Source of the DNA: a virus
Taxonomy: Duplodnaviria > Heunggongvirae > Uroviricota > Caudoviricetes
Reading direction: 5' to 3' (one strand)
Virus record (IMG/VR): IMGVR_UViG_2563366942_000004
Location: 1-4,907 of that record
Length of the DNA stretch: 4,907 bases
Made by a program: the position numbers and the translations under genes. Positions 1-4,907 of this stretch are shown here, piece by piece; the stretch's first letter is position 1; each line of letters begins with the position of its first letter. The notes below the pieces were generated by a model that made no database searches, had not been told where the DNA came from, and saw only the letters and a program-made list of their open reading frames with translations.

Positions 1-1064
1 GTTTTCAGGCCGTTGGGATCTTTCAGTGCATCCAGCCAGTCATAGACAATCTGTACCCAGGTGGTGAACGGACTGTACGCCGTCCAGATATGGAAAGTGA
101 TGGAGCGCGGCGGCGGAATTTCATCACCCCGGGCGCTGAAAAACATCAGGCCGTCACGGGTCCACATGCCCGTGTTTTCACAGATCCACCGCCCGTTACT
201 CTGGTCAAGCTCAGACTGATGGATCACACAGCCATGATGCTCACAAAGGTAGAAAACACTTTCTGGCTTATTCTTCTCCCACTTAAGACCGAAAGGCGAG
301 GCATCATCGCCAAATTTCAGATACTGCTCCTCCCCACAGTGCGGACAGGGCACATAAAAACGCATGAAGTGTGCCGACTCGTTAGCGGCTTTTTCGATCT
401 GGCAGGAGCCTTTGATTTTAGGCGTCGAGCCGCGAATGGATTTTGGCCATACAGAGCCCTCAATACGTTTATCCCCCAGCAGGGTTGGCGAACCCTCTTT
501 TTCAACATCCGGTTCGAACGAGGAAAGCTCGTCATAACAGACCACATCCACGGATTTTTCACGGTAGTTTTTTGCTGCCGCACCACCCAGACACCAGAAC
601 CCCACACCGGAGGAAAAACGCTTCAGGGTGAGCGTATTATCGCGGTGTTTTCTTCCGAACCATGGAGCCAGCTCCAGCAATGCAGGAACATCCCTTATCG
701 TTGGCTCAACATGAGATTTCATAAAATCTTCAGCAGCTGAGTCCGTGGGCTGAAAAAGAAGGCTGTTGCGTGATTTATGCTCAATAAAATAAGCCTCCAC
801 TCCCAGCAACATCTTTGTATAACCAACACGGGCAGATTTAATCAGGTTAACCGTGCGAATCAGATCGTTGCCCATACAGTTCATGATGCCAACCTGAAAC
901 GGCAGTGTTTCCCATCGCCCCGGGGTATAAGACGACTCTTTAGGAAGGTAATAATGTTTATTGGCCCACTGAACTGTCGTCAGTGGAACAGGAATAATGA
1001 GAGATAAAAGCCCTGTAGCTATCGCACCGGCTGCATTAGCTGCCTTCTGCGCGTCTGAAATCAT
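1..1064 (-). CDS. A: Terminase large subunit (lambda gpA-like), N-terminal ~354 codons; 3' end continues beyond window start
   Basis: My own minus-strand translation from ATG at 1064..1062 gives [85 protein letters not shown], later [29 protein letters not shown], and [19 protein letters not shown] at the window edge. These follow my recollection of lambda gpA ([34 protein letters not shown]). The ORF track lists no minus-strand ORF here, which fits a frame that has no stop before the window edge. The start overlaps the nu1 stop by ~29 nt, as in lambda. Not checked by search. Confidence 0.9.
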
Positions 1065-1526
1065 CGATCCACCCGCCCACGTTTTCACCGGCCTTAGCTG
1101 CAACATTGGAGGCTTTCGCGATTTCAGTTTTCACCACATCAAGGTGTGATGGTGAAATGTCCGGATATTTACGCTGTAATGTCAACGGCACACGCACAAG
1201 TATCCCCGAAATCTCCTGTGCCACACGTTGCAGAATGAAGGTAAACAGTTCAGTTTCCAGCACTACTCCGTCTTCACGGGCATTTTTCAGTTCCTGCGCA
1301 TCTGCCTGCGCTTTTGTGAGCCGGTAGCGTTCATAGTCAATGGTGCCGGGTTGTAAATCTGACTCCGCTGCCGCACGCAAATCGTCCAGTTCTTTGCGGA
1401 GCTTTTCGTTTTCGATATCAGTTTCCCTCTGCGCATACCACTGAATTGCCATGGCAGTATCAAATACAGATTCAATGCCCTTACTACCTTTGGAGGCGCA
1501 AGGGAGTCCCTGAGACTGCCAGCGTT
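1036..1526 (-). pseudogene. nu1: Terminase small subunit Nu1, 3' fragment (about codons 22-182), cut off from its 5' end by the IS
   Basis: The track ORF 1036..1608 (-) reads ...[82 protein letters not shown]..., closely following my recollection of lambda Nu1 from its WQEQGMP motif onward. The 29 codons upstream of the W codon (1521..1519) are read from IS left-end DNA and the apparent start is TTG, so the ORF as listed is chimeric. Confidence 0.85.
1521..1526. repeat. Target-site duplication AGCGTT, left copy
   Basis: AGCGTT at 1521-1526 is repeated exactly at 3937-3942. The bases outside each copy differ, so the duplication is at most 6 bp. Removing 1527..3942 restores an uninterrupted nu1 frame (...[13 protein letters not shown]...). 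Confidence 0.75.
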
Positions 1527-1560
1527 TATGAGACGACAATAACTCAGTCCGCCTGGCGCC
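1527..1560 (+). repeat. IS left terminal inverted repeat (imperfect)
   Basis: Left end TATGAGACGACAA... against the reverse complement of the right end TATTAGACGTCAA...: 11 of the first 13 positions match, and both arms end in GCGCC about 30 bp in. Extent is approximate. Confidence 0.5.
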
Positions 1561-1619
1561 GATTATTCTGGCCGGTTTTGTAACCTGAGTGTCATTTACA
1601 TGATCCAACAGGAAATGGC

Positions 1620-3119
1620 GTGACGCTCAATACTTCTCAGGTCAGTTACTATATGACTCAGCGTAAGAAAGGTATAACTCAGCATATCTCGGCCATGAAG
1701 GCTGGTATCTCAGTCCGTTCTGGTCGTCGGATCGAAAAAGGAGAGTGGGCAAAAAACAGTGTTAGGCACTGGCGCACACGCAAAGATCCTCTGGAAGCTG
1801 TGTGGGACAGCATGCTTGTTCCTCTGTTGAAAGAGAGGCCGGCTCTGACACCAACAACTCTGCTGGAGATGCTACAGGATAAATATCCCGGCCAGTACCC
1901 CAACAGCCTTCGAAGAACAATGCAACGGCGGGTCCGCGAATGGAAGCTACAGTATGGTGCAGAGCAGGAGGTCATGTTCCGCCAGCGACATCAGCCCGGT
2001 CTGCGAGGTCTGTCGGACTTTACTGAACTGAAAGGTGTAGTTGTCACCATCGCCGGTAAGTTGTTGGCGCATAAGTTGTATCACTTCCGTCTGGAATGGA
2101 GCCACTGGAGCTGGATGCGGGTTGTGCTGGGTGGTGAGAGCTTCTCTGCTCTGGCTGAAGGTCTGCAGGAAGCCCTCGGACAACTGGGCGGAGTGCCGGT
2201 AGAACATAAAACGGACAGCCTGAGGGCAGCATGGAAACAACAGGGCGAAGATGGACGCCGCGAGCTGACTGAGCGTTATGCTGCTCTCTGTCAGCACTAC
2301 GGAATGCAGGGCGTACACAATAATGCCGGTCGGGGCCACGAAAATGGCTCGGTTGAAAGTGCCCACGGACATCTGAAAAGGCGTATCTGTCAGGCGCTGA
2401 TACTGCGGGGCAGTAACGACTTCAGCACCATAGAAGAATATCAGGCCTTCATCACTCAGCAGGTTATGCGGCACAACCGTAACAATCAGGATCTGGTCAA
2501 GGAAGAACGTCTTCATCTGAAACCGCTGCCGCTTCGTCGCAGTGCTGACTATGATGAGCTGACTGTGAGGGTTAGCCGCAGCAGTACCATCAATGTGAAG
2601 CACGTCGTCTACAGCGTACCTTCCCGGCTTGTAGGTCAACTGTTACGGGTCCGGTTATGGGACGATCGTCTGAGCTGTTACGTTGGCAGCAGCGAGGTCA
2701 TGAGCTGCCCACGTGTCAGACCAGAAAAAGGGAAGACGCGGGCCCGTCGTATCGACTTCCGACATGTGATCGACAGTCTGGCAAAAAAGCCCGGTGCGTT
2801 CTGCCATGCAACGCTGAGAAATGACATCCTGCCAGACGATGAATGGCGGAGGCTGTGGCGTCGCTTATGTAATCATCTGGAACCCGACATGGCAGGCAGG
2901 CTGATGGTACATGCTCTGAAACTGGCTGCAGGATACGACGATATCTCAGTCGTGGCAAAAGGTATGGAGCAGATGCTGAATACCCCGGGAAACGTGGATC
3001 TGCACCGGCTGATGCGCTTCCTGGGTATAAAGGAAAAGGCGTTGCCGGTAGTCAATGTGAAACAGCATAACCTGAGCAGTTATGAGCAACTACTGCGTGG
3101 CAAGGGCGGTTCGCAGTGA
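1620..3119 (+). CDS. istA: IstA transposase (DDE, IS21 family), 499 aa
   Basis: Track ORF 1620..3119, GTG start preceded by AGGAAA (1610-1615). Likely helix-turn-helix near the N-terminus ([16 protein letters not shown]). Candidate catalytic residues in [15 protein letters not shown] and [16 protein letters not shown], which is my reading of a DDE pattern. Stop overlaps the istB start (GTGA at 3116-3119). Confidence 0.9.
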
Positions 3120-3871
3120 GCAATATCCATCCCCTTGAACGCAGCCTGCGTAAACTACGCCTGACACGAGTTGGAGCTGAATGGCACGCTCTGGAAAAAC
3201 GAGCACTGGCAGAAGGCTGGACACCATCGCGCTATCTTCTGACGCTATGCAATGAAGAACTCCTGTGGCGCGAGAGTGAAAAACTGCGTCGTTATAAAAA
3301 GGAGGCCCGGTTGCCAGTTGCCAAAACGCTAAGCGAATACGACTTCAGTCAGGTGCCGGAACTGAATGGAGCTCAGTTCCGGCAACTCTGTGAAACGACA
3401 GACTGGGTTGATGCAGGAGAAAACGTTCTGCTGTTCGGAGCCAGCGGGTTGGGGAAAAGCCATCTGGCGGCAGCGATCGTGGATGGCGTAGTAGGCCAGG
3501 GCTACCGGGCCCGGTTCTACAGCGCAGGAGAGTTGTTGCAGGAACTACGTAAAGCCAGAGCGCAGTTGAAACTGAATGAGCTGCTACTGAAACTGGATCG
3601 CTACCGGGTGATAGTGGTGGATGATCTTGGCTATGTCAAACGCGACAGCGCCGAAACGGGAGTACTGTTCGAGTTAATAGCGCATCGCTATGAACGTGGG
3701 AGCCTGGTGATAACCAGTAACCATCCGTTCAGCATGTGGGGCAGCATCTTCGTGGATGAGACTATGGCGGTGGCGGCGGCAGACCGGCTGATCCATCACG
3801 GATATATGTTCGAACTGAAAGGTGAAAGCTACAGGAAAAAGACAGCGAAGGCAGTAACAAGCGCGACTTGA
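3116..3871 (+). CDS. istB: IstB AAA+ ATP-binding helper protein, 251 aa
   Basis: Track ORF 3116..3871. Walker A GASGLGKSHLA and Walker B VIVVDDLGY. GTG start overlaps the istA stop by 4 nt, the usual coupled arrangement in IS21-family elements. Confidence 0.9.
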   Translation: MSNIHPLERSLRKLRLTRVGAEWHALEKRALAEGWTPSRYLLTLCNEELLWRESEKLRRYKKEARLPVAKTLSEYDFSQVPELNGAQFRQLCETTDWVDAGENVLLFGASGLGKSHLAAAIVDGVVGQGYRARFYSAGELLQELRKARAQLKLNELLLKLDRYRVIVVDDLGYVKRDSAETGVLFELIAHRYERGSLVITSNHPFSMWGSIFVDETMAVAAADRLIHHGYMFELKGESYRKKTAKAVTSAT

Positions 3872-3902
3872 TGTCGCACTGAAGGGGGCGGCCAGTATAG
3901 TT

Positions 3903-3936
3903 GGCGCGAGTCGGCAAAACTAGTTGACGTCTAATA
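3903..3936 (-). repeat. IS right terminal inverted repeat (imperfect)
   Basis: Reverse complement of 3903-3936 is TATTAGACGTCAACTAGTTTTGCCGACTCGCGCC, which pairs with the left end at 1527-1560. Confidence 0.5.
3924..3929 (+). promoter_or_regulatory. Outward-facing -35-like hexamer TTGACG in the IS right end
   Basis: TTGACG sits 7 bp inside the right terminus and points out of the element. IS21-family right ends are known to carry an outward -35. I found no good -10 at the proper spacing in the present flank. Confidence 0.3.
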
Positions 3937-3942
3937 AGCGTT
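3937..3942. repeat. Target-site duplication AGCGTT, right copy
   Basis: Exact repeat of 1521-1526, directly abutting the IS right terminus. Confidence 0.75.
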
Positions 3943-4000
3943 CAATCGTCCGCGGGTCCACGTTGAAAATTTCGGCAAGCCTCTTTTTATTAACCTTCAT
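3937..4000 (-). pseudogene. nu1: Terminase small subunit Nu1, 5' fragment (codons 1-21)
   Basis: Minus-strand ATG at 4000..3998 translates [21 protein letters not shown], compared with lambda Nu1 MEVNKKQLADIFGASIRTIQN from memory. The frame then runs into IS right-end sequence (LLDVN, stop at 3922..3920). Confidence 0.8.
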
Positions 4001-4025
4001 GAAAACAACCCATTATCAAATACAA

Positions 4026-4143
4026 GGCCCGACATGAAAACGCCAGAAAAAGGCATTTTCGGACACTTTCATGTCGGACCTTTACGGATGCAATATTAAA
4101 AAAAAACAAAAAGTTATATTCGAGAAGTACCGACACGATTTTC
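4026..4143 (-). promoter_or_regulatory. cosB-like terminase-binding region: three R-like repeats around an A-tract
   Basis: CCGACATGAAA at 4029-4039 and CCGACACGATTTT at 4130-4142 share one orientation; TTTCATGTCGG at 4067-4077 is inverted; an A-tract lies at ~4095-4113. This order (cosN, R3, bend site, inverted R2, R1, nu1 start) matches what I recall of lambda cosB. Element limits are approximate. Confidence 0.55.
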
Positions 4144-4177
4144 CCTGAAAAATTTTCATAAATAGTGAAAAACCGCG

Positions 4178-4189
4178 AGGTCGCCGCCC
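4178..4189 (-). other. cosN cohesive-end sequence (minus strand 5'-GGGCGGCGACCT-3')
   Basis: The reverse complement of 4140-4189 is GGGCGGCGACCTCGCGGTTTTTCACTATTTATGAAAATTTTTCAGGG. The first 17 nt are identical to the phage lambda left end as I remember it and the following ~30 nt are near-identical. Plus-strand 4190-4200 (CGTAACCTGTC) is the complement of the lambda right-end ...GACAGGTTACG. Confidence 0.8.
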
Positions 4190-4225
4190 CGTAACCTGTC
4201 GGATCGCCGGAAAGGACCCGCAAAA

Positions 4226-4240
4226 TGATAATAATTATCA
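4226..4240. promoter_or_regulatory. Fur-box-like 7-1-7 palindrome TGATAATAATTATCA
   Basis: Exact match to the 7-1-7 Fur-box consensus TGATAATnATTATCA. It lies ~36 bp beyond cosN and ~150 bp upstream of the ORF at 4389. A weaker ATAATcaATTAT palindrome sits at 4283-4294. Function is inferred only. Confidence 0.45.
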
Positions 4241-4388
4241 TCTACATGTCACAACGTGCATCTACACCATCAAACCACGTCAAATAATCAATTATGACGC
4301 AGGTATCGTATTAATTGATCTGCATCAACTTAACGTAAAAACAACTTCAGACAATACAAATCAGCGACACTGAATACAGGGCAACCTC

Positions 4389-4622
4389 ATGTCAACGAAG
4401 AACAGAACCCGCAGAACAACAACCCGCAACATCCGCTTTCCTAACCAAATGATTGAACAAATTAACATCGCTCTTGTTCAAAAAGGGTCCGGGAATTTCT
4501 CAGCCTGGGTCATTGAAGCCTGCCGCCGGAGACTGTGCTCAGAAAAAAGAGTTTCGCCTGAAGCAAACAAAGAAAAGAGTGACATTACTGAATTGCTCAG
4601 AAAACAGGTTAGACCAAATTGA
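4389..4622 (+). CDS. Small ribbon-helix-helix-like DNA-binding protein (77 aa), function unknown
   Basis: Track ORF 4389..4622, with a weak AGGG ribosome-binding site 8 nt upstream. The segment RNIRFPNQMIEQINIALVQKGSGNFSAWVIEACRRRL follows the strand-helix-helix pattern of Arc/MetJ/CopG-type proteins after a basic N-terminal tail. Its position beside the nu1/cos junction resembles the small ylcI/ynfO-class ORFs of E. coli cryptic prophages; that is unverified recall. Confidence 0.55.
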   Translation: MSTKNRTRRTTTRNIRFPNQMIEQINIALVQKGSGNFSAWVIEACRRRLCSEKRVSPEANKEKSDITELLRKQVRPN

Positions 4623-4679
4623 AGCAATCTAGATAATCGTGCAGACTACGCCCCCTCATATCACATGGAAGGTACTACA

Positions 4680-4907
4680 ATGGCTCAGGTTGCCATTTTT
4701 AAACAAATATTCGATAAAGTGCGAAATAATTTAAACTATCACTGGTTTTATTCTGAACTAAAACGTCACAATGTCTCACATTACATTTACTATTTAGCCA
4801 CAGAGAATATTCATCTTGTTCTTGAAAACGATAATACGGTTTTAATAAAAGGACAGGGTAAGGTTGTAAATGTAAGATTTTCAAAAAATAAATGCCTTAT
4901 AGAAGCC
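4680..4907 (+). CDS. Hypothetical protein, N-terminal 76 codons; continues past the window end
   Basis: ATG at 4680 with a GGAAGG ribosome-binding site 7 nt upstream; open through 4907 ([76 protein letters not shown]). Absent from the ORF track, presumably because no stop falls in the window. About 30% GC over 4681-4907 by my hand count. I could not assign a family. Confidence 0.5.

Follow-up and report, generated by a model that had tools for sequence, protein, structure and literature searches.

Background

In Escherichia coli K-12 the Qin prophage carries the gene pair ynfO-ydfO, and the DLP12 prophage carries the related genes ylcI and ybcV. All four are counted among the uncharacterised E. 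coli genes, also known as the y-ome (PMC11551758). In DLP12 the gene order is ylcI-ybcW-ybcV, with ybcV and ybcW being divergent (PMC7660256), and the same split arrangement is found at the right end of the phage lambda genome, which comprises a YlcI-type ORF (48109-48303c), lambdap79, lambdap78 and bor. Here the YlcI-type gene and the DUF1398 gene (lambdap78) both lie on the strand of bor and are about 650 bp apart, the gap holding an opposing ORF of 68 aa (lambdap79 in lambda, ybcW in DLP12). The YlcI-type protein of lambda and DLP12 is 64 aa in length. The YlcI-type ORF is unannotated in the lambda reference; the lambda gene called orf-64 is a different one, lambdap73.

The lambda genes past Rz at the right end are regarded as non-essential, and lambdap78 was found to be non-essential by CRISPRi (PMC10695390). 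A ybcV::kan mutant is viable (PMC3945230). According to a statement cited in PMC4077768, overexpression of YdfO led to higher resistance to oxidative stress, and ydfO was induced by ionic liquid (PMC4077768). The genes ydfO/ybcV also respond to PdhR (PMC7660256), to DicC (PMC11430063) and to sabinene adaptation. De-repression of ybcV by more than 1000-fold was reported on overexpression of the H-NS-associated T4 protein MotB (PMC7827196), a result that may be confounded by an induced DE3 prophage with its own copy of the gene. All these expression data come from K-12 or BL21, and in K-12 they concern cryptic copies only; in the literature searched, we found no experiment on the timing of expression of such a cassette from a lambda-type lysogen.

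The DNA analysed in this work, referred to as the window, is the whole stretch of 4,907 nt (positions 1 to 4,907) of the Caudoviricetes record IMGVR_UViG_2563366942_000004. An initial annotation, made from the letters of the sequence, had noticed an AT-rich gene pair at the end of the window, had guessed that the first product is a ribbon-helix-helix (RHH) protein, and had compared the layout with that of antitoxin-toxin pairs. As a fallback, it had proposed that these might simply be small, poorly characterised ORFs of E. coli prophages, and this is what they proved to be, namely genes of the ynfO/ydfO (Qin) and ylcI/ybcV (DLP12) types. The pair is like Qin ynfO-ydfO in gene order, orientation, spacing and both Pfam families. 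The core of the first protein is about 96% identical to that of Qin (L007), while the second protein is about 75% identical and represents a variant distinct from K-12 YdfO. With the right end of lambda, the pair shares the position relative to cosN and the strand opposite to the late operon; it differs from lambda and DLP12 in the tail of the first protein, which is 77 aa long, and in the gap between the two genes, which is 57 nt and not about 650 bp.

Results

Composition and control signals of the gene pair

The first gene (ORF1, ynfO-type) occupies positions 4389..4622 on the plus strand and encodes 77 aa from an ATG start. It is followed by a spacer of 57 nt (4623..4679, plus strand) and by the second gene (ORF2, ydfO/ybcV-type), of which the first 76 codons are in the window (4680..4907, plus strand; ATG at 4680, open to the window end). 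The length of ORF1 and the gap had been read in the same way by the initial annotation, and its remarks on strand, composition and translation signal also held. The terminase genes lie on the minus strand. The GC content is 44.2% for ORF1, 30.3% for the in-window part of ORF2 and 31.6% for the full gene, against 50.4% for the terminase part and 53.6% for the IS element, which agrees with the ~30% versus ~50% or more noticed before. A Shine-Dalgarno-like GGAAGG, read from the sequence at 4667..4672 on the plus strand, 6-7 nt 5' of the ATG at 4680, is the putative ribosome-binding site of the DUF1398 gene. The possibility that ORF2 ends just past the window did not hold, as it continues for 60 codons beyond it. 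The full gene, which lies at 8481-8891 and 10181-10591 in the related loci L001 and L127, respectively, encodes 136 aa; in the matching genomes no further gene of that orientation follows it.

A consensus scan of the plus strand from cos to the ATG of ynfO revealed no convincing promoter. A weak sigma-70 promoter-like match, TAGACC-16 nt-GATAAT, is present at 4610..4637 on the plus strand, at the 3' end of ynfO. It carries 9 of the 12 consensus bases (scanned at the equivalent positions 8411-8438 of L001), and the five promoter-like sites of the region are not above the number in shuffled sequences (3.3 +/- 1.7); we regard it as a candidate only, which could drive the DUF1398 gene independently. 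No terminator-like site was found by scanning the plus strand of the spacer. The minimum free energy of the segment 4620-4690 was -4.9 kcal/mol versus a shuffle mean of -13.2 (z = +2.79), that is, the spacer is less structured than shuffled sequence. Since the spacer is free of a terminator and ORF2 has its own ribosome-binding site, ynfO and the DUF1398 gene are probably co-transcribed in this arrangement. A weak hairpin (z -1.5) without a U-tract follows the DUF1398 stop codon, and no known RNA family of Rfam was detected in the window or in L001.

Protein families of ORF1 and ORF2

The ORF1 product matched Pfam family DUF3950 (PF13132) with 72.8 bits (cut-off 25; E 2e-20), NCBIfam NF041551, 'YlcI/YnfO family protein', with 35.2 bits (cut-off 30), and phrog_949 with an E-value of 6e-33. 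By these profile matches ORF1 is a YlcI/YnfO (DUF3950) protein. The 76 in-window residues of ORF2 matched Pfam family DUF1398 (PF07166) with 76.1 bits (cut-off 22; E 3e-21), and a full-length relative, P0121, scored 144.8 bits against the same family. The full-length product also matched PDB entry 2HH8, in which E. coli YdfO was solved by NMR ('hypothetical protein ydfO'), with an E-value of 2.9e-67. On this sequence similarity ORF2 is identified as a DUF1398 protein homologous to YdfO. In RefSeq, DNA that is 99.7-99.9% identical is annotated with a 'YlcI/YnfO family protein' and a 'DUF1398 domain-containing protein'.

The ORF1 protein starts with a basic N-terminal arm, continues with a core that hardly varies (residues ~10-50) and ends in a hypervariable C-terminal tail that begins at about codon 50. 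Comparison of the first 50 codons with those of phage BP-4795, in which the flanking DNA is unrelated, gave a dS of 0.81, a dN of 0.08 and an omega of 0.10. For the DUF1398 gene, omega was 0.21-0.37 against five diverged alleles. As the Pfam scores of both proteins exceed the gathering cut-offs and both genes are under purifying selection, we concluded that ORF1 and ORF2 are genuine genes rather than chance ORFs.

Among 1.84 billion representative proteins searched by profile, no more than 180 proved related to ORF1 at E <= 0.001. The truly divergent ones, with 32-54% identity, preserve the pattern [KR]xIRFP..LIExI..NFSAWVxEAC (with three dots before NFSAW in one rendering), and a survey of viral contigs for divergent members gave near-identical copies only. 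The DUF1398 allele of the window is 100% identical to those of the phages ev099, Kati, Chlobot and PhiR49_1. In a cross-species survey of DUF1398 loci, which used overly specific scan patterns, the matches outside Escherichia were for the most part contamination with lambda control DNA.

Position of the pair next to cos

The cosN cohesive-end sequence, AGGTCGCCGCCC, was located at 4178..4189 by aligning the window with the right ends of lambda, 2H10 and ev207; we take it to be the reverse complement of the 12-nt left end of lambda. The right end of the phage genome starts at 4190, and ynfO starts 200 nt inside it. The plus strand of the window corresponds to the reverse strand of a lambda-type genome, and the segment 4150-4551, from cos through about codon 54 of ORF1, is 94.8% identical to lambda. 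ORF1 is transcribed away from cos and counter to the late operon, as bor is in lambda. The order in the matching genomes runs on the late strand from the lysis genes through a KilA-N gene to a small hypothetical gene, continues on the other strand with the DUF1398 gene and ynfO, and then reaches cos, nu1, A and the head genes.

The small terminase gene (nu1) of the window prophage is interrupted by ISEc10, and the prophage is packaging-defective; it still has lambda-type head genes. The closest genome is that of E. coli MS 21-1, which is 99.9% identical over window positions 1500-3960 (the IS and its flanks) and carries the same ISEc10 insertion. The cassette DNA is also present in viable lambdoid phages, lambda included, and positions 4200-4907 of the window were matched in 3807 of 5426 complete E. 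coli genomes (~70%).

Linkage of ynfO and the DUF1398 gene

A survey of the locus across related prophages, as proposed by the initial annotation, showed that the pair is tight for one variant of ynfO and separable elsewhere. By tblastn, a YnfO-type gene was found in 155 phage records versus 43 for DUF1398. For the variant with the 77-aa tail, the DUF1398 gene lies about 60 nt downstream in 79 of 80 viral loci; in the one exception, L088, an IS5 insertion removed DUF1398 and left ynfO. In phage ev207 the YnfO-type gene is followed by bor. In BP-4795 a lone DUF3950 gene occupies the same slot, adjoining an unrelated HNH/terminase module, and in L032 a DUF1398 gene lies beside a third type of terminase without a YnfO gene. 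The divergent members of the YnfO family have no DUF1398 neighbour, and some distant ones adjoin integrases or sit in islands without packaging genes. The DUF1398 paralog ycgX stands alone after bluR in a regulatory locus outside any prophage. DUF1398-like DNA was detected in 5376 of 5426 E. coli genomes in total, and ycgX was the only match in about 2,400 E. coli records.

The YnfO core is the constant occupant of the slot. Behind it comes a DUF1398 gene, either at about 60 nt or beyond an inserted ORF of opposite orientation, or else bor or nothing. A mosaic joint is seen near codon 50-55 of ynfO, beyond which the tail is hypervariable. The linkage between the 77-aa tail and DUF1398 is best read as the outcome of a recombination joint within ynfO, which moves tail and cargo jointly.

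YnfO is a probable RHH protein

The guess that ORF1 encodes an RHH protein is plausible, although its support stays below statistical significance. With a profile of the divergent members, the CopG-family RHH protein 9kkd_A ranked first among 177,635 PDB sequences (E 0.2), and with a profile of the core only, CdbA (6sbw_A) ranked first in the same set (E 0.57). CdbA is a confirmed RHH protein (PMC7156744). The two alignments share one register, and the same register was obtained when YnfO was compared with P22 Arc by hhalign (E 0.003-0.02, probability 2-11%); in this comparison NIRFP is paired with the Arc motif NLRWP, at the junction of strand and helix A. Pfam served to check the Arc and Mnt sequences. 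RHH_6 was matched by 1 of 18 YnfO members (E 0.09), no Pfam RHH family was above threshold for YnfO, and no PDB entry reached significance when YnfO was searched by sequence or by profile.

The RHH repressors, i.e. P22 Arc and Mnt, the CopG family and CdbA, also resemble YnfO in their size, in the basic N-terminal arm and in a G/S-x-S motif ahead of helix B, and two helices are predicted in YnfO. In the AlphaFold2 monomer model (pLDDT 67) these helices span residues 19-32 and 34-54 and the basic N-terminus is disordered. Unlike the RHH repressors, the monomer model has no strand; the strand of RHH proteins forms only in the dimer. Profile searches and structure prediction had been proposed for both proteins; the searches named a family for each, whereas a Foldseek search with the YnfO monomer model against the PDB returned nothing at E <= 0.001. 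Taken as a whole, the sequence features make YnfO a probable RHH protein. We found no shared operator 5' of ynfO; since the upstream DNA of BP-4795 is unrelated to that of the lambda-type phages, no conserved operator can be named.

Discussion

A probable accessory cassette between the lysis genes and cos

We consider it somewhat probable that the gene pair is an accessory cassette of the Qin ynfO-ydfO type, similar to a 'moron', which lies between the lysis genes and the cos/terminase region. The locus has several marks of a moron: it is placed between the lysis genes and cos, its GC content is 30-32% versus about 50%, it runs opposite to the late operon, and it is variable in presence and absence. 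Lambda bor and other morons are like the cassette in slot and strand, in a GC content below that of the flanks, in being dispensable for lytic growth and in the presence/absence polymorphism among related phages. Bor differs in being an outer-membrane lipoprotein with serum resistance (record note), whereas the cassette proteins appear to be cytoplasmic and the reports of a benefit from them are limited to overexpression and expression profiles.

In such a cassette, YnfO would be a small RHH protein that binds DNA as a dimer and is built of a basic arm, then a beta-strand around NIRF, then two helices; it would probably regulate transcription, either of the leftward unit to which it belongs or of phage DNA nearby. 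The DUF1398 protein would be an AT-rich-encoded cytoplasmic cargo, one of several alternatives for the slot and dispensable for phage growth. It would probably be expressed from the prophage under particular stresses once silencing, presumably by H-NS, is relieved.

A possible role in packaging

A rather unlikely alternative is that YnfO is linked to packaging, with a site of action at cos or close by, or an effect on transcription that enters the terminase genes, for example by insulating or tuning late transcription or by assisting cos recognition, with DUF1398 as an unrelated passenger. The YnfO-type gene is always the first on the opposite strand beside the start of packaging, both with the lambda-type cos/Nu1 and with the HNH/terminase module of BP-4795. 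It is also present in capsid-forming satellites that have their own TerS/TerL (PMC13612085), and in one member the core forms a fusion with a DNA-binding segment that resembles Terminase_2 (E 1.7e-6). This fusion is a single case, however, and may be an artefact of gene calling, and the third terminase type, that of L032, does without a YnfO gene. The distant members beside integrases, or in islands that lack packaging genes, likewise speak against such a link. Rpp, the packaging-redirection protein of satellites (PICI), is a winged-HTH protein with no relation to DUF3950 (PMC6739421), and the non-essentiality of the lambda genes past Rz (PMC10695390) would leave YnfO an auxiliary role at most.

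Possible protection of the host cell or prophage

It is improbable that the pair, or DUF1398 alone, is a protection system that excludes superinfecting phages or counters host defences. In favour of this idea, the pair lies in a variable cargo slot in which bor is an alternative, and many cargo genes in prophage slots of this kind are protective; its GC content is low, its prevalence among E. coli prophages is extreme, and it is still intact in a prophage with a broken terminase. Searches with the 5,027 models of PADLOC-DB 2.0, however, gave no match for ORF1 and only Csx23 for DUF1398, at a chance-level E-value of 0.023, and no enzymatic or sensor domain was detected. The paralog ycgX is found in nearly all E. 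coli genomes searched at a locus that is not a prophage. A resistance phenotype was not found in the papers searched, beyond the bare listing of ydfO loss for one phage-resistant mutant.

An unlikely toxin-antitoxin module

The antitoxin-toxin layout raised by the initial annotation fared poorly. A type II toxin-antitoxin (TA) module, with YnfO as an RHH antitoxin and autorepressor and DUF1398 as a toxin, would act in prophage stabilisation or in abortive phage infection, and we judge it very unlikely; the looser layout of a regulator followed by cargo is possible. The arrangement does recall a TA pair, in that a small, probably DNA-binding protein comes first, a second small gene follows on the same strand without an intervening terminator, and DUF1398 comes next in nearly all viral loci of the variant with the 77-aa tail. 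The gap of 57 nt nevertheless exceeds what is usual for TA pairs, and the pairing is not obligate. As counted above, YnfO-type genes outnumber DUF1398 genes in phage records, the pair is parted in lambda and DLP12, DUF1398 stands solo as ycgX and in L032, and YnfO is found without DUF1398 in BP-4795 and ev207. Loss of DUF1398 to IS5 in L088, with ynfO left behind, fits the same pattern. The C-terminal tail of YnfO, which is the part of an antitoxin expected to bind the toxin, is hypervariable.

Nor does the second protein look like a toxin. It had no toxin match in Pfam or PADLOC, overexpression of its homologue YdfO alone was beneficial in the report cited in PMC4077768, YdfO was produced for the NMR structure 2HH8, presumably in E. 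coli, and the ybcV knockout is viable. The gene ydfO has been listed as 'essential only by TraDIS' (PMC5821084), which would suit a TA pair; in our own reading AT-rich, multi-copy genes are prone to be without mapped insertions, and we gave the listing no weight. A HEPN toxin was considered for the DUF1398 protein and rejected: HEPN_AbiA_CTD was matched by 4 of 19 members over about 35 residues, with about 16 bits versus 27. The R-x4-H motif seen in ORF2 is not conserved in spacing; ycgX reads KHYRIAH, and the histidine is replaced by leucine or proline in 6 of 19 members. Furthermore, the DUF1398 protein has an alpha+beta fold.

An unlikely virion protein

That DUF1398 is a virion protein is extremely unlikely, since the labels 'head protein' (phrog_413 and RefSeq lambdap78) and 'putative envelope protein' (older records) were assigned by automated prediction (the record notes 'Predicted by GeneMark'), and the gene lies on the strand opposite to the late structural operon, is non-essential in lambda (PMC10695390), and has a chromosomal paralog beside bluR, and the protein was a soluble monomer in the NMR work (2HH8).

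Meaning for the lambdoid prophages

The gene pair is an ordinary and very common one, already annotated in thousands of genomes. For the ynfO-ydfO pair, the TA idea can be dropped, and the labels 'head protein' and 'envelope protein' that DUF1398 carries in databases are unsupported. What is conserved in the slot beside cos is the YnfO-type gene, not DUF1398, and the coding sequence of ynfO contains a recombination joint. As a test of DNA binding is simple, YnfO, which is kept even in lambda, makes a cheap first target among the y-ome genes of prophages. It is a speculative reading, and an improbable one, that the YnfO core might be a dedicated DNA-binding factor of the lysis-packaging junction, common to phages and satellites, which controls transcription into the cos/terminase region or marks the genome end. 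If true, recombination within the gene would exchange the tail and the cargo (DUF1398 or bor) behind the core, and a function would be given to a gene that is missing from the reference annotation of lambda.

Mosaic structure of ynfO, and a repeat in its upstream DNA

Comparison of ynfO (4389-4622, plus strand), which encodes a 77-aa YlcI/YnfO-family protein, among phages revealed a mosaic recombination joint inside the gene, near codon 50-55 (about 4540-4555). The first 49 or so residues are near-invariant among phages; the C-terminal tails are mutually unrelated, and each tail travels with its own downstream DNA. In one viral contig (L088, 438-1454), an IS5 transposase gene lies immediately 3' of ynfO, at the expected start of the DUF1398 gene, and represents a second independent IS insertion into this small region.

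An inverted repeat, ATCAATTATGACG / CGTATTAATTGAT, with arms 7 nt apart, is located at about 4287-4319 of the window, 70-100 nt 5' of the ynfO start. It is kept in lambda-type phages and missing from phage BP-4795, which carries a lone DUF3950 gene in the same slot. The repeat could be an operator or a piece of cos-proximal architecture.

Annotation of the lambda and DUF1398 genes

The lambda reference record (NC_001416) leaves unannotated a 64-aa YlcI/YnfO-type ORF (locus L002, 3110-3304, equal to 48109-48303 complement), even though this conserved gene evolves under selection. The designation 'orf-64' refers to another lambda gene, lambdap73. The annotated start of lambdap78 (L002, 2043-2576) looks over-extended, giving a product of 177 aa as against 136 aa in homologues. 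DUF1398 proteins are labelled 'head protein' in PHROGs (phrog_413) and RefSeq and 'putative envelope protein' in older GenBank entries. We consider both labels unsupported, given that the gene lies on the non-late strand and is non-essential in lambda, that the protein was soluble when used as an NMR target, and that a paralog is encoded on the chromosome.

Distribution of the families

Lambda control DNA contaminates assemblies assigned to many unrelated organisms, as contigs of 3.5 kb or 48.5 kb, and the apparent host range of the YlcI/YnfO and DUF1398 families is therefore inflated. The contamination was noticed among loci L011-L039, protein matches P0016, P0025 and P0082 and the phage record MW057783; the organisms credited with such contigs include Kitasatospora, Pedobacter, Cohnella, Bradyrhizobium, Staphylococcus and a 'Campylobacter phage'. 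A divergent YnfO-type core fused to a Terminase_2-like DNA-binding segment (protein P0340; L046, 4714-5103) is carried by an integrase-primase element of 6.8 kb resembling a phage satellite. YlcI/YnfO genes have been reported in Enterobacter capsid-forming PICIs too.

The small terminase gene and the two sides of cos

The small terminase gene nu1 (overall region 1036-4000, minus strand) is interrupted after codon 21 by ISEc10, an IS21-family element carrying istA and istB (about 1527-3937), leaving fragments at 4000..3938 and 1526..1036. A 5-bp direct repeat, GCGTT, is found at both ends of the element (1522-1526 and 3938-3942), and the identical insertion is present in E. coli MS 21-1. Since nu1 is split, the window prophage should be incapable of packaging.

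Left of about 4150, the DNA comprising cosB and the nu1 start (about 4001-4150) is strongly diverged from its counterpart in the lambda-type nohD prophage (L001, 7650-7950). The cosB region contains an imperfect inverted repeat whose 27-nt arms lie at 4024-4050 and 4056-4082. Across cosN, on the side opposite cosB, the DNA is 95-99% identical to the same prophage. The two flanks of cos are thus of different ancestry, and the terminase specificity class differs.
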